Shown: positions 9,198-57,782 of the stretch, piece after piece | How the letters are laid out: every line of letters starts with the position of its first letter | Numbering within the stretch: the first letter of the stretch is position 1 | Origin: Candidatus Moraniibacteriota bacterium | GTDB taxonomy: Bacteria > Patescibacteriota > Minisyncoccia > Moranbacterales > UBA11712 | Direction of reading: 5' to 3' | Assembly: GCA_030679895.1 (NCBI GenBank) | Contig: JAUXSN010000026.1 | Span: 24,661-88,660 of the forward strand | DNA: 64,000 bases | Translations under genes and position numbers: made by a program | The notes under the pieces: model-generated | Database searches by the model: none | Seen by the model: the letters and a program-made list of their open reading frames with translations, nothing else | What the model was told of the DNA's origin: nothing

Positions 9198-9231
9198 ATA
9201 AAAATACTGAAAATAATCCTCAAATAGCACA

Positions 9232-11126: not shown

Positions 11127-11285
11127 TTATCAATTTTTAATTTCTAAACAATTTTCAATGACTGAATGAATCAATTTTCAACGTTATGTTTAAGAAATTG
11201 GGAAATTTAAGCATTGTTTGTCACCGCCTTGGCGGGATCCCGCTTGGGCGGGAAAAATTGAAAATTAGAAATTGAAAATTGCGCG
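11127..11285. repeat. Composite repeat: AATTTTCAA unit arms around the GC double hairpin tgtcaccgccttggcgggatcccgcttgggcggg (11219..11252)
   Basis: The hairpin is the reverse complement (loops differ) of the one at 7286..7319 and is flanked by ttgaaaatt and aattttcaa units. Confidence 0.7.
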
Positions 11286-15755: not shown

Positions 15756-15861
15756 TCAATACTCCAATTCTCCAATTTTCAATGAAATAAAGTTTGAAAA
15801 TTTTGTCATTGTGACATTGAAAATTGTTTGGAAATTAGAAATTGATAATTGAAAATTAGAA
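15756..15861. repeat. AATTTTCAA/TTGAAAATT unit arrays around the short palindrome tgtcattgtgacat (possible empty site or solo terminal inverted repeat of the GC-hairpin element)
   Basis: ttaataattttcaatttccaattttcaattttcaatcaa...tttgaaaattttgtcattgtgacattgaaaattgtttggaaattagaaattgataattgaaaatt. Confidence 0.65.
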
Positions 15862-17733
15862 TTAATGTTTCTTTTTCTTCTCTTTCTTTTCCTCTGCCGG
15901 CGGCATCGCTGGCGGCTGAACTTCTTCTTTCGGCGCCTGATATATCGAAACATCATGCGTCGCGTTGAAGATATCCACATCTTTCTCGGTATATTCCTCC
16001 GTCGGCTCGACTCCAAAATAATCTAGCATAAACTTGGCCATTTCGCCAAAAGTGGGAGCCGCGCTTGACTCCGCCCACTCGACATTCTTGGGATTATCCA
16101 GCTTGACCAGCATCGCGAATTTCGGATCATAGGCCGGCGCGAAACCGGCAAAGGATCCTATATGCGCGCTTTCTTCATAACCCCCGCCATTCTTTTTTGG
16201 CACTTGAGCCGTTCCCGTTTTTCCCGCCACGAGATAACCGGGAACCCCCGCTCTTTTCCCATGACCGCTTTGAACGACGCTGATGAGCATTCTGGTCAAA
16301 TCCAGGCTGGATTCTTTGGAAATAACCCGCCTTATTTCCCGGGGCTCGATAACATTCTCATTTCCGTCTCCGCTGGAAATTTTTCCGACCAAATGAGCTT
16401 TCATCATTTCGCCGCCGTTAGCGATCGTGGCAAAAGCGCTCACGAGCTGAAGAGGAGTCACCGAAAGTCCCTGCCCGAAAGCGGCCGTAAAGGCGTTTAT
16501 GCTTCTTAGTTCCTTGAGGCCCGAGATATTGCCGGAAACTTCTCCCAAAGTGTCAATTCCTGTTTTTTCGCCAAAACCAAAATTTTTCACGTATTCAAGA
16601 AATCTCAAATTGCCCAGCAATTTTTCGACGAAGATCACTCCTGTGTTCAAGGATTTTTCAAGCACCTGCGTCATTGTTTGCGCGCCATTCGCCTTGCCAT
16701 CTGAATTTTTGATGGTATATCCGGCTTCGCTTACCGCTCCGGTGTCAGTATAAATAGTGTCGGGAACCACCAGCTTCGCGTCAAGGCCGCCCGCCATCGT
16801 AACCGGCTTGAAAACAGATCCGCATTCATAAGTCTCGCTTACGACCGGATTGGCAAACACCGCCATATCTTCAACTTTTGAAAAATCATTGGGATTGAAA
16901 GTCGGCCAGGACGCCATCGCCAAAACCGCTCCGGTGCGAGGCTCGGTGATCACGATGTTGCCACTATCAGCCATAAACTTTTCCACCGATTTTTTTATTG
17001 CCATTTCCGCCCGGTACTGGATCGTATGGTCGATTGTCAGATAGAGGTCGGATCCGTTTACGGCCGGTATTATTTTTCTCTCGCTGATTGATATCCATCT
17101 CCCACCCGTGTCTCTTTCCTGCTCAAGTTTTCCTTCCTGCCCCTCAAGCTCTTTGTCCCAATAGGCTTCAAGTCCGTAACGTCCCTTCGTTTTCTCGCCG
17201 TCTGATCCGACGAAACCGACTATTTGCGAGGCAAATGTGCCGGCCGGATAGGAGCGTTCGTTTTCCGGAGCAAAATATATTCCTTTTATATTTTTTTCTT
17301 TTATGGCGCCGGATTTGTCATCCTCTGTTTTGTGGGCAATAACCGCGTACCAGCCTTCCGGCTGATCCAGCTTATCCTTCAGCTCCCCTTCGTCCAGTCC
17401 CAGGATTTCCGCGATATCGCGGGCGGCTTTTGCCGGATCTTCAATCTCTTTTGGAACGGCATAAACCAAACTCAACTCTTTGTTAGCCGCGACCGGGTAA
17501 TAGTCATCGCCGTCTTTGACGAATATCTCCCCGCGCCTTGGCACAAGATCTTCAAAAACCTTGTGCTGGTCAAAAGCCAGCTCTTGATAATATTCATGGG
17601 CAAGAATCTGAAGAGAATACAGGCGAAAAAAAATGAGGCCGGAAAATATGAAAACAAAAACAACCAGAAGATATATCCGGAAGTTTGTTTTAAGAGAACT
17701 TCTTTTCTGTTTTCCAAATTTTCTTTTAGTCAT
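15862..17733 (-). CDS. ftsI: Penicillin-binding protein / peptidoglycan D,D-transpeptidase FtsI
   Basis: N-terminal TM, PBP dimerisation domain, transpeptidase motifs (SxxK: SVFK; KTGTA); its dcw position. Confidence 0.85.
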   Translation of the reverse strand: MTKRKFGKQKRSSLKTNFRIYLLVVFVFIFSGLIFFRLYSLQILAHEYYQELAFDQHKVFEDLVPRRGEIFVKDGDDYYPVAANKELSLVYAVPKEIEDPAKAARDIAEILGLDEGELKDKLDQPEGWYAVIAHKTEDDKSGAIKEKNIKGIYFAPENERSYPAGTFASQIVGFVGSDGEKTKGRYGLEAYWDKELEGQEGKLEQERDTGGRWISISERKIIPAVNGSDLYLTIDHTIQYRAEMAIKKSVEKFMADSGNIVITEPRTGAVLAMASWPTFNPNDFSKVEDMAVFANPVVSETYECGSVFKPVTMAGGLDAKLVVPDTIYTDTGAVSEAGYTIKNSDGKANGAQTMTQVLEKSLNTGVIFVEKLLGNLRFLEYVKNFGFGEKTGIDTLGEVSGNISGLKELRSINAFTAAFGQGLSVTPLQLVSAFATIANGGEMMKAHLVGKISSGDGNENVIEPREIRRVISKESSLDLTRMLISVVQSGHGKRAGVPGYLVAGKTGTAQVPKKNGGGYEESAHIGSFAGFAPAYDPKFAMLVKLDNPKNVEWAESSAAPTFGEMAKFMLDYFGVEPTEEYTEKDVDIFNATHDVSIYQAPKEEVQPPAMPPAEEKKEKKKKH

Positions 17734-17769
17734 CGAGCTTAATGCCTATCGCATCGTTAACAAAGTATT

Positions 17770-18135
17770 TTACTTCATCGCCACATCACCCGGAAGATTC
17801 AGATAACTGACATCTTTCGGAACAATCATATTAAGTCCTTTGGTTTTTTCTTCGATATTATACATCGATCTCTGCTGCGCCTCCCGGATTTTCAGTTTTT
17901 CGTTTTCTTTCTTGAGATCGCTCATCTGATTTTCAAGCGCTTTGATTTCATATCCTTTTGTCGCCATATTATTCACCTCGAAGATATAAAAAACTCCCAA
18001 AAGACAGACTAAAGCGGCCACCAAAAAATTCAAGGTGACGTTGCCCATCCTCGCTGCTGATTGCGATTTTACTGTTTTTTTCCTCTCACCGAAATTCACG
18101 GAACTGGAATTGGTGATAGTGAGAAACCGGCTCAT
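17770..18135 (-). CDS. ftsL: Cell division protein FtsL-like (single TM plus coiled coil)
   Basis: 121 aa with a TM helix then a coiled-coil; lies between rsmH and ftsI, the standard ftsL position. Confidence 0.6.
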   Translation of the reverse strand: MSRFLTITNSSSVNFGERKKTVKSQSAARMGNVTLNFLVAALVCLLGVFYIFEVNNMATKGYEIKALENQMSDLKKENEKLKIREAQQRSMYNIEEKTKGLNMIVPKDVSYLNLPGDVAMK

Positions 18136-18163
18136 TGAACTTTTGGCCCCCCTCAGTTAGAAT

Positions 18164-19120
18164 CTATTTTTTGTTTATGTTTGTTTTTTGCCGAACTAAC
18201 CTTTCTGCCACTCTCATTTTGGCGCTTCGGCTCCTGGGATTGGTCCTGATTTCTTCTTCCGAAGCGCCAATCGGCTTTTTGGTGATTATTTTCAGGCTTT
18301 TTCTGTGCCCGCAAACGCATTTCGGAAAATTCGGCGGACAAACGCAATCTTTCGAATGCAGCCTGAAAAAATTCTTCACAATCCGGTCTTCCAATGAATG
18401 GAAGCTGATGACCGCTAGCCTCCCCCCGCTAGCAAGCATTTTTATGCTTTGGTCCAAAAATGTTTTCAAATTTTCAAGCTCCTGATTAACCTCGATTCGA
18501 AGGGCCTGGAATACTTTCGTAGCGGGATGGATTCTGCCATTTCGATATCTTTGGGAAATACTTGCGCTTATTATCTCAACCAATTGCAGTGTCCGGGCTA
18601 TTCTCTTTTCTTTTCTGGCGATTGCCACAGCTCGCGCAATACTCCTGGCAAATTTTTCCTCCCCGTAATTCCTGAATATTTCAACTAATCTTTCTTCCGG
18701 ATAATTGTTTATCACATCGGCGGCGGTAATTTTTTGAGTCTGCGGAGAATAGCGCATATCGAGAGGTCCGTCTTTTTGGAAACTGAAGCCTCTTTCGGCG
18801 TTTTCGATCTGGTCAGAGTTGAATCCAAGGTCAATCAAAATGGCGTCCACGGTTTTTATCCCCAGCCCCCTAAGAATATTCTCCAGATTGGCATAATTAT
18901 CAACTATCCCGATCAGTTCTTTTTTCGAAATAATCTCTTTGAAATTTTCAATTGCCTCCGCGTCCCAATCAATCGCAATCAATTTGCCGCCGGGCAGAAT
19001 CTTTTTGAGAATTTCAATCGCGTGCCCGCCCGCTCCCAATGTCCCGTCAACGACCACGCTCCCTTTTTTCAAATTTAGACTCTCGATTGCTTCCCCTGGC
19101 AATACCGGTTTATGTATCAT
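18164..19120 (-). CDS. rsmH: 16S rRNA (cytosine1402-N4)-methyltransferase RsmH (MraW)
   Basis: VDGTLGAGGH SAM motif, 318 aa, follows mraZ. Confidence 0.9.
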   Translation of the reverse strand: MIHKPVLPGEAIESLNLKKGSVVVDGTLGAGGHAIEILKKILPGGKLIAIDWDAEAIENFKEIISKKELIGIVDNYANLENILRGLGIKTVDAILIDLGFNSDQIENAERGFSFQKDGPLDMRYSPQTQKITAADVINNYPEERLVEIFRNYGEEKFARSIARAVAIARKEKRIARTLQLVEIISASISQRYRNGRIHPATKVFQALRIEVNQELENLKTFLDQSIKMLASGGRLAVISFHSLEDRIVKNFFRLHSKDCVCPPNFPKCVCGHRKSLKIITKKPIGASEEEIRTNPRSRSAKMRVAERLVRQKTNINKK

Positions 19121-19129
19121 CGATTATTA

Positions 19130-19180
19130 TCCTAAAGTTCAACTTTCGGAACGCTTCCTAAAGTTGAACTTTAGGATTCA
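19130..19180. promoter_or_regulatory. Twin palindromes TCCTAAAGTTcAACTTTcGGA and TCCTAAAGTTgAACTTTAGGA between mraZ and rsmH
   Basis: Two tandem 21-bp inverted repeats of the TCCTAAAG-N5-CTTTAGGA type; the same design recurs at 55644..55691. Confidence 0.65.
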
Positions 19181-33417: not shown

Positions 33418-34707
33418 CTATCTATCCTTCCAGTTTTCCCTTCTTAATTTCTTGTGATAACTGATCGCGAAGCGGTGGGCTTCGTTTCGGATTCGCTCAA
33501 GCAATTTTTCGTCGCTCAATATCCGATTATACTTCTCTCTTATTTGCTCATTTCGACCGAGATATGTCAAGAGAAACTTTGACTGATAGACATCCAGTTT
33601 TTTTCGCGTCGGTCCTTTGGCAACTGCGATGACCGGGATATCCATTTTAAAATCCTTCAAAACGCTTTGCGCCATATTGAGATGCCCCTTTCCCCCATCA
33701 AGAAGAATTAGATCCGGTCTTGCCCAGTTATTTTTGAATCTCCTATATAATACTTCTCGCATCATGGCCACGTCATCAATTCCGGATACGGTTTTTATTT
33801 TGAACTTTCGGTATTCGTTTTTATCCTCCTTCCCATTTGTAAATACAACCATCGAGCCAACCGCGTAATCCCCGCCGATGTTTGAAATATCATAGGCTTC
33901 AATCCTGAATGGTTTTGGAAGTTTAGCTTCCATAATGGAAGCTAAACTTCCACTTCCACTATCCTCGGATATCAACACCACATCCCGAATATGCTCCAGA
34001 GCAAAGATCCGATTGCGCGTTTCAGCGGCTTTTTCGAATTCTCTTTTTTTGGAATAATCTTTCATTTCTTTTTCCAGTTTTCCAATCAAACTTTTTTTCT
34101 TGCCTTCAAGGATCATCTTCACTCCCCGAATATTTTTGAGATAATCTTTTTTCGAAATCGCGCCCGCGTACGGCCCCGGACATCTTCCGATCTGGAAATC
34201 GAAACAACATTGACTCGTCGCCCGCTTTGCGCTGTGAAACGGAAAAATTCTGCGGATGAGTTTCAAAGCAATATTCATTTGGTGCTTCGAGAGATACGGC
34301 CCGTATATTTTTTTCGCCGGTACTTTCCCCAGTTCCGTTTTCCAAAGGATCACCACCCGCGGAAATTTTTCTTTGGTGATCACAAAATAGCCGAAACTCT
34401 TGTCATCTTTCGCCATCACATTATATTTCGGCTGGTGTTTTTTGATGAGATTTGCTTCCAAAATCAGCGCTTCAAGAACCGAATCAGTTTCATGGATTTT
34501 AATGTCCGCAACTTGCAAAACCATCGGCTCAATATTCGGCCTGTCGAGGTGAAACCTCGACAGGAAATAACTCCCCACCCGATCCTTGAGACTCGTCGCT
34601 TTCCCAATATAAAGAATTTTCCCTTGCTTATCACGGAATTCGTACACGCCGGGGGATTTTGGAAGCTTATTTATGCTGTTTTTTGGGGCTTGGCTTGACA
34701 ATGGCAT
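33418..34707 (-). CDS. uvrC: Excinuclease ABC subunit C, short form lacking the C-terminal (HhH)2 domain
   Basis: GIY-YIG (GVYEFRDKQGKILYIGKATSLKDRV), UvrBC-interaction and RNase H-like endonuclease regions; only 429 aa. Confidence 0.8.
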   Translation of the reverse strand: MPLSSQAPKNSINKLPKSPGVYEFRDKQGKILYIGKATSLKDRVGSYFLSRFHLDRPNIEPMVLQVADIKIHETDSVLEALILEANLIKKHQPKYNVMAKDDKSFGYFVITKEKFPRVVILWKTELGKVPAKKIYGPYLSKHQMNIALKLIRRIFPFHSAKRATSQCCFDFQIGRCPGPYAGAISKKDYLKNIRGVKMILEGKKKSLIGKLEKEMKDYSKKREFEKAAETRNRIFALEHIRDVVLISEDSGSGSLASIMEAKLPKPFRIEAYDISNIGGDYAVGSMVVFTNGKEDKNEYRKFKIKTVSGIDDVAMMREVLYRRFKNNWARPDLILLDGGKGHLNMAQSVLKDFKMDIPVIAVAKGPTRKKLDVYQSKFLLTYLGRNEQIREKYNRILSDEKLLERIRNEAHRFAISYHKKLRRENWKDR

Positions 34708-34760: not shown

Positions 34761-35003
34761 ATGCAGTACGTTATCGTTGAGAGGGTTCACATCACGAACC
34801 TTCATACGGTATTTGGCCCGTATTCTTCTCTAGGAGTGGTGGGAAGAATTTTACAGAATAAAGGATATCACCTCTACCTCAACTGGGAGAAATCCGCCGG
34901 ACGGTTGGTGTATGAAAAGGAAAATGAGCGGGGCACGCACACCATCAAAACAGTAAGCGCAGTTGTGTGCCCGATTCTTCCGGACGCCAGCGGCATGGTT
35001 TAA
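34761..35003 (+). CDS. Hypothetical small protein (80 aa)
   Basis: Strong SD (AAGGAGG) before the ATG; terminator at 35033..35070. Confidence 0.45.
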   Translation: MQYVIVERVHITNLHTVFGPYSSLGVVGRILQNKGYHLYLNWEKSAGRLVYEKENERGTHTIKTVSAVVCPILPDASGMV

Positions 35004-35095
35004 TTTAATCACCGACTTGGTGACCACCCATAGTGGGAGCAGGTTTTATAGCTTGTCTCCCGCTTTTTTATTTGTAAAAAACCCTGACTCCTTTT

Positions 35096-35177
35096 TGTCA
35101 TTCCCGCGAAAGCGGGAATCCAGTAATCGTTGCTATTCAGTTTTTTTCTGGATTCCGCATCAAGTGCGGGATGACAC
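35096..35177. mobile_element. GC-hairpin palindromic MITE-like element, full copy A, immediately 3' of uvrA
   Basis: tgtcattcccgcgaaagcgggaatccag - spacer - ctggattccgcatcaagtgcgggatgacac; termini TGTCAT/ATGACA. Confidence 0.7.
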
Positions 35178-35183
35178 TTCGTG

Positions 35184-38135
35184 TCACTTCCTTAAAATTT
35201 CTTTAAGAAATTTTGCTGTATAACTTTCCTTGTGATATTTCACCACTTCCTCCGGCGGGCCGGTGACGACGACGCGTCCGCCAAGGTCACCGCCTTCGGG
35301 ACCAAGATCAATTATCCAATCCGCCGTTTTGATGACATCCATATTATGTTCGATCACGATCACGGTATTTCCCGCTTCGACCAAACGGTTGAGAACGCCC
35401 AACAACTTCTTGATATCTTCAAAATGCAGTCCGGTGGTCGGCTCGTCCAATATGTACAGGGTATCACCCGACGAGCGGCGCGACAATTCCGTGGCCAGTT
35501 TGATCCTCTGCGCTTCCCCGCCGGAAAGAGTGGTCGCCGATTGGCCGAGATTGATATACCCAAGTCCCACGTCTTCGAGAACCTTGAGCGCTTCATGAAT
35601 CGCCGGGAAATTTTCAAAAAAATCTTTGGCTTCGCTCACCGTCATCGCCAAAACATCGGCAATGGTTTTTCCTTTATATTTCACTTGCAAGGTTTCGCTG
35701 TTATAGCGCTTTCCGGAACATACGTCGCAAGGAAGATAAACGTCCGGCATAAATTGCATTTCGATCTTGAGAAATCCTTCGCCGGCGCAATTGTCGCAAC
35801 GCCCGCCATTCACATTGAAAGAAAATCTTCCCGGGCCATAACCGCGTTGTTTGGCTTCTCTCGTCATGGCAAACAAAGTCCGGATCGGCGTGAAAAGTCC
35901 GGTGTAAGTCGCCGGATTGGACCGCGGCGTGCGACCGATCGGAGACTGGTCGATGTGGATCACTTTGTCGACATATTGCGTCCCAAGAATTTCTTTGTGC
36001 CGCCCCGGCCGCTCGAGTGAGCGCATAATTTTCGACGACAAACCTTTCCCCAGTATATCCTCAACCAGTGTCGATTTTCCGCTACCGCTGACACCCGTCA
36101 CACAAGTCAATGTTTTCAGGGGAAATTCGACTGTTATACTCTTGAGATTGTGTTCAGTGGCACCTTTCACAGTGAGCCACTTTTTGTTTTTCACCGGACG
36201 GCGGAATTTGGGAATTTCTATTTCAGCATCACCTCGCAAATATTTTCCCGTGATCGATTTTTTTTCTTTTTCGATATCCTTCACCGAACCTTCGGCCACG
36301 ATTTCTCCGCCAAGTTTTCCCGCTCCCGGACCGATATCAACCAGATGATCGGCCGCCCGGATCGTTTCTTCGTCGTGTTCAATGACAATGACCGTGTTCC
36401 CGATATCTCTCAATTTGAGCAATGTTTCAAGTAATTTCGCATTATCTCGCGCGTGAAGCCCTACTGACGGCTCGTCGAGGATATACAAAACTCCGACTAA
36501 TTGCGATCCAATCTGGGAAGCGAGGCGGATTCTCTGCGTTTCGCCACCGGCCAAAGTATTGGCGGATCTGCCCAAGGTCAAATACCCAAGACCCACATCC
36601 TCCAAAAACTTCAAACGATTTTTCACCTCTTTGAGAATTCTGTCGGCGATTATTTTTTCCCGCTCGTTTAATTTTATGCCTTCAAAAAATTTCAGCGTTT
36701 CATTCACGCTCACGGTTGAAATTTCGGATACATTTTTTCCGCCAACAGTCACAAGCAACGCTTCGGGTTTGTATCTCGATCCTCGACAAGCGCCGCAGGG
36801 ACTTTGGGACATATATTTTTCAATGCCTTCCCGCACCGCTTCCGAATCGGTCTTGAAATATCGGTCGCGCAAAAATCCGACCACGCCCTTCCATTCGATC
36901 TCCCATTTCCAGATCGATCCTGTTTTTGAATGGAATCTCACCGGTATCTCGTCGGCCGGATCATCGCCATTCACAAGCAGTTCTTGCTGGCGGTCCGTGA
37001 GATTCCGGAAACGAACATTGTCCGGAATGGAATAAAAATTCGTCACCGAGCGCAAAATAGTCCCGTAATAATTATTGCGCTTATACGTCCAGGGAATAAT
37101 CGCCCCTTCGGCGATGGTCTTCGTTTTGTCAGGAATTACCATATCGGGATCAATTTCTTTTTTTGTTCCCAGTCCTTCACATTCGGGACACGCTCCCTGC
37201 GGACTATTGAAAGAAAACAGCCGCGGCTCCAGTTCCGGAAAAACAGCATCTTCGTGATCAGGACAGGCCATGTTTTGATTATATATCTGCTCGGATTTTC
37301 CATTGCGCACTTTCACAAATCCTTTCGACAGCTTTAGCGCGCTTTCTGCACCTTCAAATATCCGGCTTATATTTTTATCATTCATTTCGATCGTATCGAT
37401 CAAAATATCAATACTGTGCTTTTTGTATCTGGCTAAAATTTTGCCTTTTTTGGCTTCTTCTTCGAGATTTACTTTTTTGCCATCAATATATGCTTCCGAA
37501 AATCCACGTTTCCACATTTCCGCAAGCAAGGTCGCGTAATCACCCTTTCTCTCGCGTACGACTGGTGAAAGAATTTCAATTTTCAAACTTTTTTCTTTTT
37601 TGTCATCCCCGTGAAAACGGGGATCCAGTTTTGCCTGGTCACTGGAACTTTTCTGGATTCCCACGGAGTTTATCCTCGTGAAAACGGGGACGGGAATGAC
37701 AAGATTGGACAAATCAAATATTCTATCAACTACTTCATCAATCGAAAGTTTTGAAATCTCTTTTTCGCACACCGGACAATGCGTCACGCCGATCTTGGCA
37801 TATAAAAGCCTCAAATAGTCATGAATTTCAGTCACCGTTCCCACCGTCGAGCGCGGATTGTGCGACGCCGCTTTCTGGTCAATCGAAATCGCCGGGCTCA
37901 AGCCTTCGATCGAATCCACATCCGGTTTTTCCATCTGTCCCAAAAACTGCCGGGCATAACTCGAAAGACTCTCGAGATACCGCCTCTGCCCCTCGGCAAA
38001 AATTGTATCAAAAGCCAGCGTCGATTTCCCCGACCCGCTGATGCCCGTGAAAACAATAAACTTCCCCCGAGGTAGTTCAAGGTTTATATTCTTCAAATTA
38101 TGCTCTCGCGCGCCGCGAATTATTATTTTATCCAT
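35184..38135 (-). CDS. uvrA: Excinuclease ABC subunit A
   Basis: Two ABC ATPase modules and Zn fingers; 983 aa, about 35 aa longer than typical because of an in-frame repeat-element insertion (separate entry). Confidence 0.95.
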   Translation of the reverse strand: MDKIIIRGAREHNLKNINLELPRGKFIVFTGISGSGKSTLAFDTIFAEGQRRYLESLSSYARQFLGQMEKPDVDSIEGLSPAISIDQKAASHNPRSTVGTVTEIHDYLRLLYAKIGVTHCPVCEKEISKLSIDEVVDRIFDLSNLVIPVPVFTRINSVGIQKSSSDQAKLDPRFHGDDKKEKSLKIEILSPVVRERKGDYATLLAEMWKRGFSEAYIDGKKVNLEEEAKKGKILARYKKHSIDILIDTIEMNDKNISRIFEGAESALKLSKGFVKVRNGKSEQIYNQNMACPDHEDAVFPELEPRLFSFNSPQGACPECEGLGTKKEIDPDMVIPDKTKTIAEGAIIPWTYKRNNYYGTILRSVTNFYSIPDNVRFRNLTDRQQELLVNGDDPADEIPVRFHSKTGSIWKWEIEWKGVVGFLRDRYFKTDSEAVREGIEKYMSQSPCGACRGSRYKPEALLVTVGGKNVSEISTVSVNETLKFFEGIKLNEREKIIADRILKEVKNRLKFLEDVGLGYLTLGRSANTLAGGETQRIRLASQIGSQLVGVLYILDEPSVGLHARDNAKLLETLLKLRDIGNTVIVIEHDEETIRAADHLVDIGPGAGKLGGEIVAEGSVKDIEKEKKSITGKYLRGDAEIEIPKFRRPVKNKKWLTVKGATEHNLKSITVEFPLKTLTCVTGVSGSGKSTLVEDILGKGLSSKIMRSLERPGRHKEILGTQYVDKVIHIDQSPIGRTPRSNPATYTGLFTPIRTLFAMTREAKQRGYGPGRFSFNVNGGRCDNCAGEGFLKIEMQFMPDVYLPCDVCSGKRYNSETLQVKYKGKTIADVLAMTVSEAKDFFENFPAIHEALKVLEDVGLGYINLGQSATTLSGGEAQRIKLATELSRRSSGDTLYILDEPTTGLHFEDIKKLLGVLNRLVEAGNTVIVIEHNMDVIKTADWIIDLGPEGGDLGGRVVVTGPPEEVVKYHKESYTAKFLKEILRK
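37601..37701. mobile_element. GC-hairpin palindromic MITE-like element, copy B, in frame inside uvrA (encodes VIPVPVFTRINSVGIQKSSSDQAKLDPRFHGDDKK)
   Basis: tgtcatccccgtgaaaacggggatccag...ctggattcccacgg...gtgaaaacggggacgggaatgaca; the uvrA ORF runs through it; the segment is absent from E. coli UvrA between ...VDNVLSQP and EGKRLMLLAPI... Confidence 0.75.
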
Positions 38136-38142
38136 GGTCTTT

Positions 38143-38188
38143 GCTAAAGCTTAGCCTTAGCGAGCCGCCGCTAAGGCTAAGCTTTAGC
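38143..38188. promoter_or_regulatory. Perfect 20-bp inverted repeat (6-nt loop) 8 nt upstream of the uvrA start codon
   Basis: gctaaagcttagccttagcg-agccgc-cgctaaggctaagctttagc; candidate operator or RBS-sequestering hairpin. Confidence 0.6.
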
Positions 38189-38543
38189 TCGCATAGTTTC
38201 CTAACACAAAAATTCCCCATTTAAGGCTTGCTCCGTACCAAATATCTTTGAGAATAAGTTTCTGATTTGCAAATACAAAAACTTACCCCAAATTGGCACA
38301 TATACACACCAACATATTTTGGTGCGGGGGTTTCACTAATATAATACTATTGAACTAATAAATCAATTATAAAAAGGGATAATTAACCTAAATAAAAACT
38401 ACTTCTATACAAACCGTTTAGGGATTTACATAGAAGTAGTGGAGACGGTGCAATTCGTCCCCAAGAAAGATAGAATATCTGTATTGCACTCGAATGTAAT
38501 AATTCGAACAGATATTGCAGCTTCAGCCAACGGCTTTGGCTTT

Positions 38544-39025: not shown

Positions 39026-41026
39026 CTACCCCATCTGCAATTTCCGCAGCTGAATTATTTCATCCCGGATCACCGCCGCTTTTTCGAATTCCATATTTCG
39101 GGCGGCGGTTTTCATTTCCATTTCTTTTTGCTTGATATATCCAGCGATGTCCTCGAGCGATTCCAGTTTCACGAATTCGCGCGGGACTTCAGGTTTCAGT
39201 TCATGGTCAACAATAGATTCGATCTTCTTCTGGATGGTTTTTGGCGTAATGTGATGCAGTTTGTTGTATTTCGTCTGCGTTGCGCGCCGGCGGTTGGTTT
39301 CGTCTATCGCCCGCCTCATTGAGCCGGTAATATGATCGGCATATAAGATAACCCGCCCGGAAATGTTTCTTGCCGCGCGGCCAATGGTCTGAATGAGCGA
39401 AGTTTCCGAGCGTAAAAATCCTTCTTTGTCTGCGTCGAGTATTGTGACGAGTGTTACTTCCGGCAAGTCCAAACCTTCCCGCAAAAGATTCACCCCAACG
39501 AGAACATCGAATTTTCCTCTTCGCAAATTTTCCAAAATCCGCACCCGCTCCATCGTATCCACTCCTGAATGCAAATATTCGGCTTTTATCTGGCTTTCTT
39601 TGAGGAAATCCGAAAGATCTTCAGCCATTTTTTTCGTCAGCGTCGTGACTAAAACCCTTTCTTTTTTATCTACTACTTTTTTAATTTCGGAAATAACATC
39701 CTTGATTTGACCCTTTGCAGGTTTTATCACTAATTCGGGATCTATCAAGCCGGTCGGACGGATGATTTGCTCGACAATCTGCTTCTTGGAGCCTAAAGCC
39801 CCAATTGGGGCTTTAGGCTCCAAACTATGGGATATTTCATAATCCGCCGGAGTCGCCGAAGTGAAAATAACTTGGTTTATTTTGTTCTCAAATTCCGAAA
39901 ATTTGAGAGGTCGATTATCATAAGCGCTCGGAAGACGAAAACCATTATCAATAAGAGTTTTTTTGCGCGCGTGATCCCCATTATACATTCCATTGAGTTG
40001 CGGGACGGTGACGTGTGATTCATCAATGACAATCAGAAAATTTTTATCAAAATAGTCCACAAGAGTATACGGCGCCTCCCCTGGCGCGCGGCCGGTGAGA
40101 TATCGCGAATAATTTTCAATTCCGTTACAATAGCCGATCTCACGCATCATTTCCAGATCCTGTTTGGTGCGACGCCAAATCCTTTCAGCTTCCAGTAATT
40201 TGTTATGTTTTTTAAAATACGCCACCCGCTCATTAAGCTCTTTTTCAATTTCTTTGAGTGCCTCTTCCATCACCGGCTCGGGCACGACAAAATGTTTCGC
40301 CGGATAAATCAAAACTTTTTCCAAATTACCCAGTGCCTCGCCGGTCAAAAAATCATATTCGCTGATTTTTGCTATTTTATCATTCTTGAGTTCTATTCTC
40401 GTCACGATTTCCCTTGATGGCGACATTATTTCAATCGTCTCTCCGTGAGAGCGAAATTTCCCGCGGGACAAATGTTCCGAGCGAAGAAAATGCATTTCCG
40501 TGAGATCCCTGATCAATTTTTCCCGGTCAATCGCTTCTCCAATTTTGAGGCTCAAAGAAATATCTTCATAGAATTCCGGCGATCCCAAGCCGTAGATGCA
40601 AGAAACGGACGCGACAATGACCACATCTTTTCGCGACATCACCGCCACCGTCGCCGCGTGCCGCAACCGGTCAATCTCGTCATTTATCTGGGACTCTTTT
40701 TCAATATATGTGTCGGAGGATGCAATATACGCTTCCGGCTGGTAGTAATCATAGTAAGAGACAAAATATTCCACCGCGCTTTTCGGAAAAAAAGTCCGAA
40801 ATTCCTGCGCCAATTGCGCCGCTAGCGTCTTGTTCGGCGCGATCACCAGAGTCGGCTTTTGCACATTCTCAATCACATTCGCCATCGTGAAAGTCTTCCC
40901 GGAACCGGTCACACCGAGAAGAGTTTGAAATTTATTTCCTCGCTTTAAGCCAGCGGTCAATTGCTCGATCGCCTTCGGCTGATCGCCATCGGGTTTGAAT
41001 TTTGAGGATATTTTAAATTTAGACAT
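39026..41026 (-). CDS. uvrB: Excinuclease ABC subunit B
   Basis: Helicase motifs, beta-hairpin and UvrB/UvrC interaction region; start set at MSKFKISSKFKPDGDQPKAI, the conserved UvrB N-terminus (the track ORF extends to 41125). Confidence 0.9.
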   Translation of the reverse strand: MSKFKISSKFKPDGDQPKAIEQLTAGLKRGNKFQTLLGVTGSGKTFTMANVIENVQKPTLVIAPNKTLAAQLAQEFRTFFPKSAVEYFVSYYDYYQPEAYIASSDTYIEKESQINDEIDRLRHAATVAVMSRKDVVIVASVSCIYGLGSPEFYEDISLSLKIGEAIDREKLIRDLTEMHFLRSEHLSRGKFRSHGETIEIMSPSREIVTRIELKNDKIAKISEYDFLTGEALGNLEKVLIYPAKHFVVPEPVMEEALKEIEKELNERVAYFKKHNKLLEAERIWRRTKQDLEMMREIGYCNGIENYSRYLTGRAPGEAPYTLVDYFDKNFLIVIDESHVTVPQLNGMYNGDHARKKTLIDNGFRLPSAYDNRPLKFSEFENKINQVIFTSATPADYEISHSLEPKAPIGALGSKKQIVEQIIRPTGLIDPELVIKPAKGQIKDVISEIKKVVDKKERVLVTTLTKKMAEDLSDFLKESQIKAEYLHSGVDTMERVRILENLRRGKFDVLVGVNLLREGLDLPEVTLVTILDADKEGFLRSETSLIQTIGRAARNISGRVILYADHITGSMRRAIDETNRRRATQTKYNKLHHITPKTIQKKIESIVDHELKPEVPREFVKLESLEDIAGYIKQKEMEMKTAARNMEFEKAAVIRDEIIQLRKLQMG

Positions 41027-41187
41027 GCTGAGAGGGTTTACTTGCCCCGTCAAATTCGCGAAGTGAAAATTTGACGGGGGAACTTTGAAGATATTTGAAA
41101 TTTCATGTTCAACTATTATACACACGAAAAAACAAAAAGTCTACATCTAGATTAGCATGAATTATAATATAGTGATATAGTGATAGT

Positions 41188-42384
41188 ATGTTCAAACGTG
41201 GAATTGCTACATTCACTCTTGATTATGGCAAATGCCCGAAATGGCTTTTTGAGCGGATGGTGAAATTGGGACGGGAAATGTCGCGGGTCATCATTGCCGA
41301 ATACGGGCCGGACGAATTTGTGAAACGGATTGCCGATCCGGTCTGGTTTCAGGCACTCGGAACGGTGCTCGCTTTTGATTGGAACGCGTCGGGATTGACG
41401 ACCATTCTCACCGCGGCTTTGAAAGAAGCGATCCGCGGAGAAGAAAGAGATTTGGGAATATATATTTGCGGAGGGAAAGGAAAAACTTCCCTCAAAACTC
41501 CGGAGCAGATCAGTTTGTTCGGCGCGCGAGCGGAGCTTTCGCAGGAAAAAATAAATTCGCTGGAATACAATTCCCGCATGGCCGCCAAAGTTGATTCTTC
41601 TCTCGTTCAAGACGGATTCCAGATTTATCACCATTGCTTTTTCTTTTCGCAAAACGGCGTATGGGCAGTGGTTCAACAGGGAATGAATGAAAAAAATGTA
41701 ACGGCGCGACGCTATCACTGGTTTTCAGACGACGCCAAGAATATGGTCATCGAACCGCACGCTGGAATAATTTCAGATGGCCAGCATACCGGACTCAATA
41801 TGACTGCAAGAGAAAGTGAAAATACACAAAAGATCAGCACCGAGCTTGTGCAAGGAAGTTATAATACGCTGATGAAGGATTTAAAACTATTGAGCAAATA
41901 TCCAATCAACAGGAAGTCCAACTTCCAAAAGGGAATTTGGACTTCCTCGTCGACGCCGCAGAGCCAAGTTGTATCGATTAAAAACAAAAAACAGGAGTTA
42001 ACCCTGTTAAACTTAACCGATCTAAATTTCAAAACCCACCCCGTTCTCTTAGAAGACTTCACCAAAAGCAAATACCTGCAAAAAATACTTTATGAAGTAA
42101 ATGAAATAAAACCGAAAAATTATGAACAACTTTTGTCCCTCAAAGGCGTCGGACCGAAAACCATCCGCGCGCTCGCCCTCACCGCCGAAGTGATCTACGG
42201 CGCCAAAGCTTCCTACGAAGATCCCGCTCGCTACTCCTTCGCCCACGGCGGGAAAGATTTTATCCCCTACCCCGTCGACCGCCCGACATATAATCAAACC
42301 ATCGCCACCATGCGCCAGCTTGCATCCAAGATGAAAATTGGATATAGTGAAAAAAATAAGGTAACGGATCGACTTATAATATAA
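41188..42384 (+). CDS. DUF763-family protein with a C-terminal helix-hairpin-helix
   Basis: KCPKWLFERMVKLGREMSRVIIAEYGPDEFVKRIADPVWFQALGTVLAFDWNASGLTT matches DUF763 as I remember it; HhH LLSLKGVGPKTIRAL. Confidence 0.55.
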   Translation: MFKRGIATFTLDYGKCPKWLFERMVKLGREMSRVIIAEYGPDEFVKRIADPVWFQALGTVLAFDWNASGLTTILTAALKEAIRGEERDLGIYICGGKGKTSLKTPEQISLFGARAELSQEKINSLEYNSRMAAKVDSSLVQDGFQIYHHCFFFSQNGVWAVVQQGMNEKNVTARRYHWFSDDAKNMVIEPHAGIISDGQHTGLNMTARESENTQKISTELVQGSYNTLMKDLKLLSKYPINRKSNFQKGIWTSSSTPQSQVVSIKNKKQELTLLNLTDLNFKTHPVLLEDFTKSKYLQKILYEVNEIKPKNYEQLLSLKGVGPKTIRALALTAEVIYGAKASYEDPARYSFAHGGKDFIPYPVDRPTYNQTIATMRQLASKMKIGYSEKNKVTDRLII

Positions 42385-51094: not shown

Positions 51095-52789
51095 TTGAAA
51101 CAAAAAATGCGAAAGAGAATAAAAACTCGATGGAAAAGATGGAGAAGTGTCGCGAGTGATTATATCCGCTATAAGCCGGAACAAAAACTCGGCCGCCGGC
51201 AGAAATATTTATATCTGCTGCTTGGCGCGGTTATCGTGATCGGCGCTTTTGCAATCCGGGCCTACCACATTTCTTCTCTTCCGCCGGGAATATATCCCGA
51301 TGAAGCAGTCAACGGCACGGATGCCATAAACGCGATTGAAACCGGCCATTTTCGGCTTTTTTATCCGAATAATTACGGACGGGAGGGGCTATACATAAAC
51401 CTCATTGCTTTAGGATTTATTTTTTTCGGCGTCAGTATCATCACTCTCAAGATTTGGTCAGTATTTTTCGGGACTCTGACTGTGCTCGGAATGATCTTTC
51501 TTGGCCGGGAATTGTTCCGGTCCTGGCACGCGGGACTGGTCGCCGGATTTTTGTACGCCACCACTTTTTGGGCCATAAATTTCAACCGGATCGCTTTCCG
51601 CGCCAATATGCTTCCCTTCGTCCTGGTTTTTTCTTTTTATTTCCTTTTTAGAGGGTTGCGAACCAAAAAAAAGATAAACTACGTCCTCGCCGGAACACTT
51701 TTCGGACTCGGTACTCATACCTACATCGCGTTTCGGGTCGCTCCCGCGATACTGATCGCCCTTTTTATTGCTCTGATTCTCGCAAAAAAATCTTTTTTGA
51801 AAACATATTGGAAAGAAATTTCCATTTATGTTCTTTCTATGTTTTTCGTGGCTCTTCCGATCCTTCTCACTTTCTACGCCCATCCGGAATATTTCGAAAC
51901 CCGCTCCGAAGCGGTTTCCGTTTTTTCTCCGAAAGTCAACCAGGGCCATCTTTGGCAGGCCCTGGGAACCAGCGCCCGCCTTACTTTCGGCATGTTTAAT
52001 TTCAAAGGAGACCAGAATTGGCGTCATAATCTCCCCAGTCAGCCGGAACTTCAATCCTGGACGGGAACATTTTTCCTGATCGGAATTATATTTTTATTTT
52101 TTCAGCTTTTTTATTGGATTTTTTGGAGAATTAAAAATGGAATTCGAAACGATAATTTGACTCTTCCCGTGCTTCTCCTCTCTTGGATCTTTATCATGCT
52201 TCTTCCGGAAATGCTGGCCTATGAAGGCCTGCCGCACACGTTGAGAGCCATCGGCTCGCTCCCTGCCGCCATTTTAATAGCTGTTTTCTCAATTGAAGTC
52301 TTCAGGAGATGGATAATGAAAATCAGTATCGGATACATCAAGATTCCGCTTTATATTTTGCTGGTTTCAGCTGTTTTATTCAGCGGCTATATCTCAACCA
52401 AAAGATATTTTGTCGATTGGGGCCAGAGCCTCGATATTCATCCGGCTTTTTCTCAAAATTTGAAGAATATGGCCCTTTACCTCAATAGCGCTCCCGACAG
52501 TTATCATAAGTACATAGTCGCCAATGCCGGCGGGCAGATTATGGACGATGGCCTGCCGGTTTCCGCCGAGGCGGTAAAAATGCTAACATACTATCGGACT
52601 CCCGGAATAACTTATCTTCGTCCCGGTTTTGATCCGTCCGTTATAAAATCTCCGGCAAAAATGGTCCTGATGTATTACGACGGAGTGATTATTGCCGATA
52701 TTAAATCAAGATTTTCAAACGTTTACATCCAAAAACTGGATCCCCAACCCGGAAACGGAACCGATTATTTTGTAATAAACATTAATTGA
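51095..52789 (+). CDS. GT-C fold glycosyltransferase, ArnT/PMT family (GT39-like)
   Basis: YPDEAVNG DE motif in the first periplasmic loop; polytopic; 564 aa. Confidence 0.6.
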   Translation: MKQKMRKRIKTRWKRWRSVASDYIRYKPEQKLGRRQKYLYLLLGAVIVIGAFAIRAYHISSLPPGIYPDEAVNGTDAINAIETGHFRLFYPNNYGREGLYINLIALGFIFFGVSIITLKIWSVFFGTLTVLGMIFLGRELFRSWHAGLVAGFLYATTFWAINFNRIAFRANMLPFVLVFSFYFLFRGLRTKKKINYVLAGTLFGLGTHTYIAFRVAPAILIALFIALILAKKSFLKTYWKEISIYVLSMFFVALPILLTFYAHPEYFETRSEAVSVFSPKVNQGHLWQALGTSARLTFGMFNFKGDQNWRHNLPSQPELQSWTGTFFLIGIIFLFFQLFYWIFWRIKNGIRNDNLTLPVLLLSWIFIMLLPEMLAYEGLPHTLRAIGSLPAAILIAVFSIEVFRRWIMKISIGYIKIPLYILLVSAVLFSGYISTKRYFVDWGQSLDIHPAFSQNLKNMALYLNSAPDSYHKYIVANAGGQIMDDGLPVSAEAVKMLTYYRTPGITYLRPGFDPSVIKSPAKMVLMYYDGVIIADIKSRFSNVYIQKLDPQPGNGTDYFVININ

Positions 52790-52881
52790 CAGTGATCAGC
52801 AAACAACGAACAGTGAACAATATTTTATTTAGAAGAAAAATAAAAAAATATTGATCACTGATCACTGATCATTGTTCACTG
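52790..52881. repeat. Long palindrome of CAGTGATCA/CAGTGAACA words with an AT-rich loop, between the two GT-C genes
   Basis: cagtgatcagcaaacaacgaacagtgaacaa - AT loop - ttgatcactgatcactgatcattgttcactg; second copy of the family seen at 646..718. Confidence 0.7.
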
Positions 52882-54695: not shown

Positions 54696-54725
54696 TGTCA
54701 TACCGCACTTGATGCGGGAATGACA
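54696..54725. mobile_element. Solo half-copy (single hairpin) of the GC-hairpin element, acting as a bidirectional terminator
   Basis: tgtcataccgcacttgatgcgggaatgaca. Confidence 0.6.
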
Positions 54726-55638: not shown

Positions 55639-55643
55639 GTTTT

Positions 55644-55691
55644 TCCTAAAGTTTAGCTTTAGGAAGCGTTCCTAAAGCTAAACTTTAGGAA
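55644..55691. promoter_or_regulatory. Twin palindromes TCCTAAAGtttagCTTTAGGA and TCCTAAAGctaaaCTTTAGGA directly upstream of the ftsQ-like start (the AGGA of the proximal arm sits at SD distance)
   Basis: Same TCCTAAAG-N5-CTTTAGGA x2 design as at 19130..19180. Confidence 0.65.
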
Positions 55692-55698
55692 ATAGACG

Positions 55699-56442
55699 CT
55701 ATAAAATACTTTTCACTACTTTTGCGATTATCCAGGCATAAACGAAATGCCGGCCGTATTTTTTTATGCGGACCGGCTCGCTTTTCCCCTGGAAACTGAA
55801 ATTGAAAGTCTGCCCTTCGGCATCAGTCTTGGAATCCGTCGCCCTTGCATCCGCGCCTTCCTCAAAACCATATGTAATCACCTTTCCTTTGGCGGAACCT
55901 TTGAGCTCCCTTACCCTTTCATCGTCGTTATTCAAGACAATATAACCACCCTCGGGTATTTCCGAAACAAGCTGCCTAAGTTCATTTTGGATTATTTCAA
56001 GGCTGGAATTGGAATAAGTATAGCTGCCCTCCACATTGGTGATTATGGCCACGTTCGGCCGGACCATTTCAAGAAGCTTTTTCATGTCGCCTTTTTCTTC
56101 GACTCCAAGCTCCAGCACAAGTTTTTCGGGAAACTTCCGTCCGAAAAGAGCCCGCATTTTGGCTTGCACAAGCACTTTAATCCATTTTGCGGCCGAAGAT
56201 TCGCCCGAATCCAAATAGAGAATCGCAAGCGGCAAACCAATTTCGGTGTTGTAGGATTTCGGATTTCCTCGCACTTCTTCTTCACCGTGTTTTTCGCGCA
56301 GAAATTTCAAAATATATTCTTTGACTGTCGTCTTTCCGGTACTTCCGGCAATAGCGACAATAAACGGTTTATGCCGCCATAAAACTAACTTCGTGAGGAG
56401 TTTTAGATAATATTGGATAAATGATTTGAGAAATTTTTTCAT
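55699..56442 (-). CDS. Truncated Mur-ligase-family protein (MurF-paralog central domain only, 247 aa); possible gene remnant
   Basis: IAGSTGKTTVKE...NTEIGLPLAIL is paralogous to murF (14406..15755) but the N- and C-terminal Mur domains are missing. Confidence 0.5.
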   Translation of the reverse strand: MKKFLKSFIQYYLKLLTKLVLWRHKPFIVAIAGSTGKTTVKEYILKFLREKHGEEEVRGNPKSYNTEIGLPLAILYLDSGESSAAKWIKVLVQAKMRALFGRKFPEKLVLELGVEEKGDMKKLLEMVRPNVAIITNVEGSYTYSNSSLEIIQNELRQLVSEIPEGGYIVLNNDDERVRELKGSAKGKVITYGFEEGADARATDSKTDAEGQTFNFSFQGKSEPVRIKKYGRHFVYAWIIAKVVKSIL

Positions 56443-56471: not shown

Positions 56472-56553
56472 TGTCATCCCGCACTTGATGCGGGATCCAG
56501 TTTCTATGCATAAAATTACATTTTCTGGATCCCCGCTTTCGCGGGGATGACAC
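56472..56553. mobile_element. GC-hairpin palindromic MITE-like element, full copy D
   Basis: tgtcatcccgcacttgatgcgggatccag - spacer - ctggatccccgctttcgcggggatgacac. Confidence 0.7.
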
Positions 56554-56588: not shown

Positions 56589-57782
56589 TTAACTAAAATA
56601 TTTCTCCATCCGATCAAACGCCAAATTTATATCCTCTTCCGATCTTCCGAAGCACATCCGAATGTGATTTTCCCCGCTCGGGCCGAAAGCCGCTCCGGGA
56701 ACGGTGGCTACTCTGGCTTTCTCTAACAATTCTATCGCAAATTGCCATGATCCGCCATCGGTCGATATTTTTTTCAGATATTCATCTTTTATCCTCGGAA
56801 ATACGAAATAGGCGCTGTCCGGTTTTTGATAGGAAAACACTTTTGTAAGTTTATCGAGCCGCCGGCAAATCAAGTCCCGCCTCTTTTTGTATATTTGGTG
56901 ATATTTTGCAAGCTCCGAATCCGCCATCTCAAGCGCCGCGAGCGCCGCGTATTGCGAAACGACCGGCGCGCAAGTGACCAGAGCGTCATGAACGGCCAGA
57001 ATTTTTTTCGCGAGTTCCTGATGCGTGGCAAGATACGCTATCCGCCAGCCAGTCATCGCGTAGGCTTTGGAAAAGGAAAAAATGTATATCAAGCGATCCC
57101 GAATACCGCGCAGTTCGGCAAGAGAATATAACGGAAGGTTCGACCTCCCTGTGGAGGTTGAACCTCCATTATCCTCAAAAACAAAATCCTTATACACCTC
57201 GTCGGAAAAAATATAAAGATTATGCTTGATCGCCAGTTGCGCCAAAGCATGAAGCTGGTTTCGTGAAAATATCGTTCCGGTCGGATTGTTCGGATTGCAG
57301 AAAAGGAAAGCGCGCGTCCGCGGCGTAATGAGCTTTTCAAATTTATCGATATCAAACGCCCAGCCTTTTTCTTCGTCAAGCGGAACAAAAATCGGCGTTC
57401 CGCGAGCCACTTTTATCGCTGATTGATATGACGTATAAGTCGGATCCGGTATCAGCACTTCGTCTCCCGGCTCAAGAATGGCAAGAAGCGTGGCTGTGAT
57501 CGCTTCAATCGACCCGGCGGTAGCGATAATTTCCGTTTCAAAATCGAAGAATTTATTTTCTTTCTCCAAATAATGAGCAATAGTTTCCCGAAATTCCAAA
57601 ATTCCCGGCGAAAGGGAATATTTGGCGACTTTTCCCTGCTCAATCGCCTCAATCGCCCGCCGTTTGATCGGCTCGGGCGTATCAAAAGACGGCACACCTT
57701 GCGCAAGCGAAACAACTCCGGGAATGCGAGACGCCCGGAGTTCCATTTCCTTAATTGGGGATAAGTTTATTTTCTCACCCAT
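56589..57782 (-). CDS. PLP-dependent aminotransferase, class I/II (AspC-like)
   Basis: SFSKAYAMTGWRIAY lysine motif; 397 aa. Confidence 0.8.
   Translation of the reverse strand: MGEKINLSPIKEMELRASRIPGVVSLAQGVPSFDTPEPIKRRAIEAIEQGKVAKYSLSPGILEFRETIAHYLEKENKFFDFETEIIATAGSIEAITATLLAILEPGDEVLIPDPTYTSYQSAIKVARGTPIFVPLDEEKGWAFDIDKFEKLITPRTRAFLFCNPNNPTGTIFSRNQLHALAQLAIKHNLYIFSDEVYKDFVFEDNGGSTSTGRSNLPLYSLAELRGIRDRLIYIFSFSKAYAMTGWRIAYLATHQELAKKILAVHDALVTCAPVVSQYAALAALEMADSELAKYHQIYKKRRDLICRRLDKLTKVFSYQKPDSAYFVFPRIKDEYLKKISTDGGSWQFAIELLEKARVATVPGAAFGPSGENHIRMCFGRSEEDINLAFDRMEKYFS

Follow-up and report, generated by a model that had tools for sequence, protein, structure and literature searches.

A CGTC-type palindromic repeat dimer lies in frame within the uvrA gene of a Candidatus Moranbacteria genome

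We analyzed a 64,000-nucleotide stretch of DNA (hereafter the window; assembly GCA_030679895.1, contig JAUXSN010000026.1, positions 24,661 to 88,660) from a Candidatus Moraniibacteriota bacterium of the Patescibacteria, or Candidate Phyla Radiation (CPR), in which the excision-repair gene uvrA carries an in-frame palindromic element that we call element D. Our interpretation, to which we assign a probability of roughly 80%, is that D is a non-autonomous, selfish dimer of repetitive extragenic palindromic (REP) units of the CGTC-tagged superfamily, which entered uvrA after the split from the nearest sampled relative, was probably moved in trans and now encodes what is likely a tolerated passenger peptide. 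If so, the palindromic family of Rickettsia, Neisseria and other Proteobacteria also resides in the CPR, within essential proteins.

Structure and reading frame of element D

The features of the host gene and of the element are as follows.

35184 to 38135, minus strand: uvrA, 983 amino acids (aa), intact, host of element D
37601 to 37701, minus strand: element D, CGTC-type REP dimer in frame in uvrA
37601 to 37628, plus strand: canonical CGTC-1 unit of D, with tag TGTC, 8-bp stem ATCCCCGT/ACGGGGAT, loop GAAA and tail CCA(G)
37629 to 37652, no strand assigned: spacer of D, 24 nt, between both units
37653 to 37701, minus strand: compound unit of D, with tag TGTC and an outer stem of 6 bp (ATTCCC/GGGAAT) that encloses a nested hairpin

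An earlier note on this DNA described a GC-rich double hairpin of about 100 nt, with TGTCAT/ATGACA termini, lying within uvrA without interrupting it. We found a double hairpin of 101 nt that starts with TGTCAT at 37601, ends with ATGACA at 37701 and consists of TGTCATCCCCGTGAAAACGGGGATCCAG, the 24-nt spacer and CTGGATTCCCACGGAGTTTATCCTCGTGAAAACGGGGACGGGAATGACA; the only long open reading frame (ORF) at this position is uvrA, which runs through the element with neither stop nor frameshift. The description requires two amendments. The GC content of D (51%) is only mildly elevated relative to uvrA (47%) and the window (44%), and only one of the two arms is a simple, canonical hairpin. The other arm is 19 nt longer than a canonical unit, retains the outer 6 bp only of the 8-bp stem and contains a nested hairpin (about 37672 to 37690, ATCCTCGTGAAAACGGGGA) that is approximately a direct copy of the stem-loop in the canonical arm. 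The RNA fold of D on the mRNA strand has a predicted energy of -38.1 kcal/mol (z-score -3.5).

The insert peptide quoted in the earlier note agrees with the translation. UvrA residues 146-178 (VIPVPVFTRINSVGIQKSSSDQAKLDPRFHGDD) are predicted to be encoded wholly by D, which also reaches one base into each adjoining codon, at the third position of codon 145 and the first position of codon 179, and the frame in use yields the peptide pattern VIP..GIQ...LDPRFHGDD. Predicted insert and junction peptides are IFDLSNLVIPVPVFTR, INSVGIQK and FHGDDK. The element is flanked by ...TCCAATC on one side and by AAAAAGAAAAAAG... on the other. In our reading of the sequence, excision of 101 nt produces a frameshift and excision of 102 nt restores DLSNQKEKSLKIEIL, the additional base being a flanking T or A, both of which also lengthen the palindrome. 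Only two of the six frames of D are free of stop codons, and uvrA uses one of these. A net gain of 102 nt, combined with two open frames in six, implies that the in-frame survival of D involved a selective filter on both length and frame.

Assignment to the CGTC-tagged REP superfamily

Judged by its sequence, D is a member of the CGTC-tagged REP superfamily, comprising CGTC-1 and CGTC-2 (Di Nocera, De Gregorio and Rocco, 2013, BMC Genomics 14:522, PMC3733652), because its tag, stem, loop, tail and organization in inverted dimers match the published criteria. Seven units of this kind are present at four loci of the 64-kb window, three of which, in agreement with the earlier note, are intergenic:

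35096 to 35177, no strand assigned: REP dimer A, 82 nt, a CGTC-1 and a CGTC-2 unit with a 24-nt spacer
56472 to 56553, no strand assigned: REP dimer B, 82 nt, a CGTC-2 and a CGTC-1 unit with a 24-nt spacer
54696 to 54725, no strand assigned: solo hairpin C, CGTC-2-like, loop CTTGA, between convergent genes

The tag TGTC, which is accepted together with CCTC as a variant of CGTC and is a common one (PMC3733652), is carried by every canonical unit (six) and by the solo unit. The stems (ATCCCCGT, ATTCCCGC, ATCCCGCA and ATCCCCGC) are of 8 bp, start with AT and have 0-1 mismatch; three units have the loop GAAA and three the loop CTTGA, in line with the published lengths of 4 and 5 nt; and the CCA tail is present in 6/6 canonical units. 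All three dimers are inverted with a spacer of 24 nt, within the published range of 20-100 nt, and the spacer of D equals those of A and B in length and differs from them in sequence. The pattern TGTCATYCC-N8-14-GGRATCCAG occurred five times in the window and not once in 100 dinucleotide-preserving shuffles.

Copies A, B and C all lie at gene 3' ends. Dimer A begins 7 nt 3' of the uvrA stop codon and folds at -31.2 kcal/mol (z-score -4.6), and dimer B is downstream of an aminotransferase gene (56589 to 57782). Published CGTC REPs are likewise found mainly 3' of ORFs, and intragenic, in-frame copies have been reported in uvrA of Thioalkalivibrio and Opitutus terrae and in uvrB, uvrC and dnaE of R. 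conorii (PMC3733652). The window copies thus share with the published family the tag, stem, loop, tail and dimers, the location downstream of ORFs and the in-frame copies in repair genes, uvrA included. They differ in that the host belongs to the Patescibacteria (Ca. Moranbacteria), outside the listed host phyla (Proteobacteria, Chlorobi, Bacteroidetes, Spirochaetes and Thermotogae; PMC3733652), in that the intergenic dimers combine CGTC-1 with CGTC-2, and in that D has one compound arm.

The earlier note had compared D with Rickettsia palindromic elements (RPEs), and the relationship proves closer than analogy, given that the units fit CGTC-1/CGTC-2 and that CGTC-1 equals both Neisseria dRS3 and R. 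conorii RPE-6 (PMC3733652). The R. conorii CGTC-1 peptides VIPAKAGI, CHSRESGNP and SFPRKRES...LDSRFRGND (supplementary table of PMC3733652) have counterparts in the frames of element D and copies A and B, with VIPAKAGI and LDSRFRGND in the same frames as the window pattern VIP..GIQ...LDPRFHGDD. As with RPE-6, a palindromic repeat is inserted in frame in a conserved housekeeping gene of a reduced genome, and in the window uvrA the conserved host protein is left intact; the host, however, is not a Rickettsia. In-frame RPE insertions were described by Ogata et al., as cited in PMC3733652 and PMC10969869. The classical RPE-1 is described as longer (~150 bp).

With respect to Neisseria, the 20-bp dRS3/NIME consensus ATTCCC-N8-GGGAAT is matched exactly by one unit of copy A (35100 to 35119, ATTCCCGCGAAAGCGGGAAT), the other units having ATCCCC/GGGGAT. 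Unlike NIME loci, the window contains isolated dimers only, with no arrays of dRS3 and RS elements, and no association with a filamentous prophage or with an IS110-type recombinase was seen in it. Among the loci compared, a dRS3-like array was found only in an Azospirillaceae metagenome-assembled genome (MAG; L045, 2484 to 3042), where CGTC dimers are repeated in tandem with a 124-nt period in a manner resembling Neisseria NIME arrays.

A further parallel is offered by the REPIN-RAYT system, in which doublets of GTAG REPs are mobilized by REP-associated tyrosine transposases (RAYTs) resembling those of IS200/IS605 (Bertels and Rainey, 2011, PMC3116915). In both cases two inverted REP hairpins separated by a short spacer form one non-autonomous unit, with intergenic copies at gene 3' ends, whereas the tag here is TGTC/CGTC and not GTAG. 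No RAYT gene was detected among 37 ORFs of the window, and CGTC REPs have no known RAYT or other dedicated transposase (PMC3733652).

A 12-14-nt match to the element (AAAACTGGATCCCC) at 52732 to 52745, in the C-terminal part of the ORF at 51095 to 52789, has no hairpin partner and was rejected as a further copy, being taken as a chance match or a decayed remnant. Between dimer B, which lies upstream, and a double hairpin, which lies downstream, is a Mur-ligase-like ORF (55699 to 56442, minus strand, 247 aa) in which the middle domain is present and the C-terminal domain absent; it may be truncated.

Element D is absent from related UvrA proteins

The window UvrA was compared with its best 120 homologues, which are of Moranbacteria/Parcubacteria type and 69-90% identical. 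The segment encoded by D was found in the window protein only, being absent from the 119 other best homologues, including the closest relatives (86-90% identical); none of these shares the ~35 residues that the earlier note regarded as inserted. The smallest state of the linker is six residues, e.g., IDEIVDRIL-EAKSGS-KIEILSPVV, and the closest relatives, P0004 to P0008, have this minimal form. At the DNA level, the site is empty (RIL-EARSGA-KIEIL) in a relative whose UvrA is 87% identical (L003), and in the nearest relative, with a 90% identical UvrA (L001), it is occupied by a different palindrome of 42 nt. L001 also carries an orthologue of dimer A (12888 to 12969), just past its uvrA stop codon, so the CGTC family was in the lineage before the L001 split. 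No CGTC-family unit was found in L003 or in three other relatives (L124, L125 and L126).

These comparisons identify D, as far as the alignments can tell, as an insertion and not as ancestral sequence, as the earlier note proposed, and they place its entry into uvrA after the split from L001. Two other readings of the same data, that the repeat was misassembled or that an ancestral segment was lost in all relatives, are extremely unlikely. The sequence does come from a MAG, repeats do trouble assemblers and the linker is variable in the family; however, both flanks continue a single uvrA frame and the total is in frame, which a chimeric join would not produce, the same 983-aa protein stands in an NCBI record, and the minimal six-residue linker of P0004 to P0008 would require many independent losses.

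The host gene is retained and its loop is permissive

The window uvrA may be regarded as a working gene under purifying selection, because every invariant column of a 115-sequence UvrA alignment is kept, the ratio of nonsynonymous to synonymous substitution rates (dN/dS) relative to L001 is 0.074 (dS = 0.74), and AlphaFold predicts a folded protein apart from the insert loop (mean pLDDT confidence score 78.8). The protein is 100% identical to the NCBI entry 'excinuclease ABC subunit UvrA [Candidatus Moranbacteria bacterium]', also of 983 aa.

In a phmmer search against the PDB, the match to Geobacillus stearothermophilus UvrA (2r6f, 3uwx), which served as reference in place of the E. coli protein named in the earlier note, fell into two parts: query residues 1-141 correspond to chain residues 21-161, and 184-982 to 166-957. 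At the insert, 42 query residues thus stand against four in the G. stearothermophilus protein. AlphaFold models residues 145-182 as coil with pLDDT < 50 and no secondary structure, placing them between a helix (132-142) and a strand (185-197). The position is one that we take to be the N-terminal edge, or start, of the UvrB-binding domain, and the alignment to relatives and structures that the earlier note suggested accordingly maps the insert to a predicted unstructured loop at a helix/strand junction of that domain. In the model, the insertion site is a short surface linker and a tolerated position.

The same loop has received unrelated palindromes in other Moranbacteria, with fold energies of -30 to -45 kcal/mol:

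L001: palindrome of 42 nt
L124: palindrome of nearly 90 nt
L125: palindrome with a perfect 21-bp stem
L126: long palindrome

This loop, between the first helix and the strand of the UvrB-binding domain, therefore looks like a very permissive landing pad for palindromes, a property of possible use in protein engineering. Among the best 120 homologues, other variable UvrA sites recur after residues 182, 278-294, 390 and 464-467. In L126, a contig of Moranbacteria type, the uvrA gene (1038 aa) is followed 3 kb downstream by a second, uvrA-like gene (16084 to 18960, 958 aa).

Palindromes also lie in frame in neighboring genes. The window uvrA belongs to a nucleotide-excision-repair gene cluster of uvrC, uvrA, a 167-aa ORF, uvrB and a DUF763 gene, whose relevant features are:

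33418 to 34707: uvrC, excision-repair cluster
33916 to 33952 and 34540 to 34564: palindromes in uvrC, with 17-bp and 11-bp stems, respectively
39026 to 41125, minus strand: uvrB, excision-repair cluster
39786 to 39823: perfect palindrome TTGGAGCCTAAAGCCCCAATTGGGGCTTTAGGCTCCAA in uvrB, 38 nt, 17-bp stem, in-frame peptide LEPKAPIGALGSK
41188 to 42384, plus strand: DUF763 gene, excision-repair cluster
41911 to 41947: palindrome in the DUF763 gene, 37 nt, in frame

The uvrB palindrome is not a CGTC REP, and the UvrB of L001 (92% identical) lacks it. That of the DUF763 gene sits within 16 inserted residues (PINRKSNFQKGIWTSS) with no counterpart in the L001 orthologue (91% identical), and the one at 33916 to 33952 occupies a variable uvrC linker before the RNase H-like domain, in which relatives have other sequence of similar length. 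In the whole window, 19 hairpins with a stem of at least 10 bp were counted, as compared with ~2 in shuffles, and ten of them lie within ORFs; in-frame palindromes also occur in the unrelated genes dnaX, a glycosyltransferase gene and an aminotransferase gene. uvrA, uvrB and uvrC hold 4/11 of the intragenic palindromes against ~1.3 expected by coding length (P ~ 0.03, post hoc), an excess on which we do not rely as evidence, since it is marginal, concerns small numbers and was noticed afterwards. We interpret these data to mean that palindromic DNA arrives at a high rate and that the tolerance of the proteins determines what is kept; palindromes may also have a real preference for repair genes.

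The insert peptide is most likely a tolerated passenger and not an adaptation. An alternative is that it was co-opted, in that the loop tunes the UvrA-UvrB interaction (e.g., giving weaker excision repair and a higher mutation rate) or that the -38 kcal/mol mRNA hairpin regulates uvrA translation or stability. Such a role would fit the location within the UvrB-binding domain, the in-frame palindromes in all of uvrA, uvrB and uvrC of the window, the RNA fold z-score of -3.5 and the recurrence of repair genes as REP hosts, for which mutator effects have been speculated upon (PMC3733652). We nevertheless consider it unlikely, as the insert is present in only 1/120 best homologues, the occupants of the loop are unrelated in sequence, an observation better explained by tolerance than by selection for a function, the loop is predicted to be disordered, dnaX and the two transferase genes carry in-frame palindromes as well, and the excess in uvrABC is marginal and post hoc.

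Distribution across bacteria and in-frame copies in other genes

A scan for the dimer pattern in one genome per species, for which chance matches were estimated at well below one, detected it at at least 120 loci in more than 15 phyla. The listed loci include Alpha-, Beta-, Gamma- and Deltaproteobacteria and Rickettsiales (among them a Rickettsia), as well as Nitrospirota, Nitrospinota, Planctomycetota, Chloroflexota, Gemmatimonadota, Armatimonadota, Bipolaricaulota, Aminicenantes, Poribacteria and Bacteroidota. At least 11 genomes of Patescibacteria, labelled Parcubacteria, Saccharibacteria, Uhrbacteria, Nomurabacteria or Patescibacteria group, are represented. Only three viral contigs had the pattern, and phage carriage was rejected as the spreading route.

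The 189 units among the matches listed comprise 148 with a 4-nt loop and 24 with a 5-nt loop (mostly CTTGA). In 142 of these 148 4-nt-loop units, the three stem positions left free by the pattern are fully paired, with compensatory variants such as CGC/GCG, TGC/GCA, CGT/ACG, GGC/GCC and CAC/GTG. The conservation of shape, tag, loop and tail across phyla, together with stems that drift and covary, suggests that a folded strand is recognized by a protein.

Eight of the 73 elements examined among the matches listed lie deep inside long ORFs, and six of those ORFs encode recognizable proteins, each with an in-frame CGTC element:

L037, 2204 to 2303 (Parcubacteria GW2011_GWB1_42_6): leucyl-tRNA synthetase (LeuRS), 100-nt in-frame CGTC dimer
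L008 (Parcubacteria): queuine tRNA-ribosyltransferase (TGT), in-frame CGTC element
L009: TruB, in-frame CGTC element
L026: RluA-type pseudouridine synthase, in-frame CGTC element
L092: epimerase-like protein, in-frame CGTC element
L094: YgfZ-like protein, in-frame CGTC element

The LeuRS insert is predicted to encode CHSRSASVIPAQAGIQVNSESNSGLDPRFHGDDI; the canonical arm of this dimer is identical at 28/28 positions to 37601 to 37628 of D, and its other arm is compound too. Since LeuRS and TGT of Parcubacteria have them, in-frame CGTC dimers in the CPR are not unique to the window genome.

The earlier note stated that this behavior had not been described for such a genome. As regards the CPR, this agrees with our search, in which no paper linking REPs or RPEs with Patescibacteria/CPR was found in an incomplete coverage of the literature; the behavior itself is not new, REPs having been published in uvrA, uvrB and uvrC of other phyla. 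Already published, then, are both the CGTC-1/2 family and the in-frame occurrence of REPs and RPEs in repair genes. A 2024 review of prokaryotic MITEs gives in-frame RPEs for Rickettsia only and allows that the mechanism may occur elsewhere. What appears to be new is the Patescibacteria as a host phylum, with at least 11 other CPR loci of which two are in frame (LeuRS and TGT), the uptake of unrelated palindromes by the UvrA loop of other Moranbacteria, and the in-frame palindromes in uvrB, uvrC and the DUF763 gene of the window. The value of these findings lies in the extension of the family to the CPR, in the permissive loop and in the opportunity to seek the CGTC mobilizing enzyme in the CPR. 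For annotation, they imply that differences in protein length and odd low-complexity loops in the CPR can be repeat insertions and not lineage-specific domains.

Proposed mobilization of element D

We propose that a CGTC REP dimer entered the uvrA coding sequence after the split from the nearest sampled relative and that it could survive there because the net gain of 102 nt amounted to whole codons, a stop-free frame was available and the site was a short surface linker. The outcome would be a disordered loop of ~34 residues (predicted) in the product of a still functional gene under purifying selection. Movement would have involved a folded, single-stranded hairpin and an enzyme acting in trans, as RAYT tyrosine transposases act on GTAG REPs; recognition by a protein is suggested by the cross-phylum conservation of tag, loop and tail and by the covariation of the stems.

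The earlier note called the element MITE-like, i.e., similar to a miniature inverted-repeat transposable element (MITE), a label that we regard as loose, since we found neither a target-site duplication nor a parent insertion sequence (IS); REP dimer fits better. A classical MITE would be the deletion derivative of an IS with a DDE transposase, and its cut-and-paste movement would depend on its terminal inverted repeats. The TGTCAT/ATGACA termini and the 28-nt arms are indeed inverted repeats, and TGT...ACA ends occur in some families of DDE elements. Such an origin is very unlikely all the same, as none of the four copies in the window and none of 47 full copies taken from other genomes is flanked by a target-site duplication, neither an IS with these ends nor a recurrent neighbor gene was found, and the hairpin structure of each arm, the covarying stems, the conserved loop, tag and tail and the existence of solo units are features of REPs. 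The palindrome of some genomes continues beyond the ends of the element. The search for a parent IS with the same ends covered the window and the 120 loci listed, a limited search space, and was negative.

Several points weigh against the proposal of a REP dimer that was moved in trans and is tolerated as a passenger. No transposase, Y1 or other, was detected when the 37 window ORFs were scanned with Pfam, and no gene family is enriched beside the element: in an all-against-all comparison of 2056 ORFs from the 120 loci listed, no family was present in more than eight loci. The mobilization step is thus pure inference. No empty-site allele from the same species was found, the nearest protein among 5.8 billion being only 90% identical, and the L001 split is not recent (dS 0.74), so the boundaries given for D and the timing of its entry are provisional. 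The modeled placement of the loop within the UvrB-binding domain, in turn, weakens the case for neutrality, and Di Nocera et al. argue that it may be no accident that REPs turn up repeatedly in repair genes (PMC3733652).

Other candidates for a function or a mobilizer were set aside. In L034, inverted units lie on either side of a gene, which encodes a DUF4384 protein and not a transposase. A gathering-threshold Rfam search of the whole window returned three tRNAs only and no family for the element, and an E-value search of 35000 to 38300 returned one chance-level miRNA match (38137 to 38195). The REP hairpins were not scored as intrinsic terminators in a scan of 34900 to 38400, and the ATGACA ends gave only weak -35-like matches, which were not taken as promoter evidence.

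As a long shot, CGTC REPs may be moved by a conserved housekeeping enzyme that is not a transposase, and the repeated capture of different palindromes by the UvrA loop, and by uvrB and uvrC of the window, would reflect a mechanistic link between hairpin DNA and excision repair and not mere tolerance. CPR genomes are generally small, and one that gains copies leaves fewer candidate genes for the CGTC mobilizing enzyme; were the housekeeping idea true, a gene-poor CPR genome still gaining copies, as seen in uvrA here and in LeuRS and TGT of other Parcubacteria, would narrow the candidates enough to identify the enzyme.

Other repeats in the window

Further repeat families were observed in the window. 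A second double-hairpin family, with CCTAAAG...CTTTAGG and GCTAAAGCTTAGC motifs, is present at 19129 to 19177, 55640 to 55694 and 38143 to 38188, all intergenic; the last of these lies just upstream of the uvrA start, and the uvrB and uvrC palindromes have similar motifs. A GC-rich double hairpin of 55 nt (TGTCACCGCC..GGCGGGATCCCGC..GCGGG) occurs in intergenic DNA at 7278 to 7332 and, inverted, at 11206 to 11260 (82% complementary), and could be a CGTC relative that has diverged. Blocks of an AT-rich, AATTTTCAAT-type repeat fill parts of three intergenic regions (9054 to 9225, 11099 to 11280 and 15707 to 15860) and include 64-nt inverted arms that are 88% complementary and 4.6 kb apart. Finally, runs of short GTGATCA/ACTGATCA-type repeats at 645 to 733 and 52775 to 52881 form inverted matches 52 kb apart.

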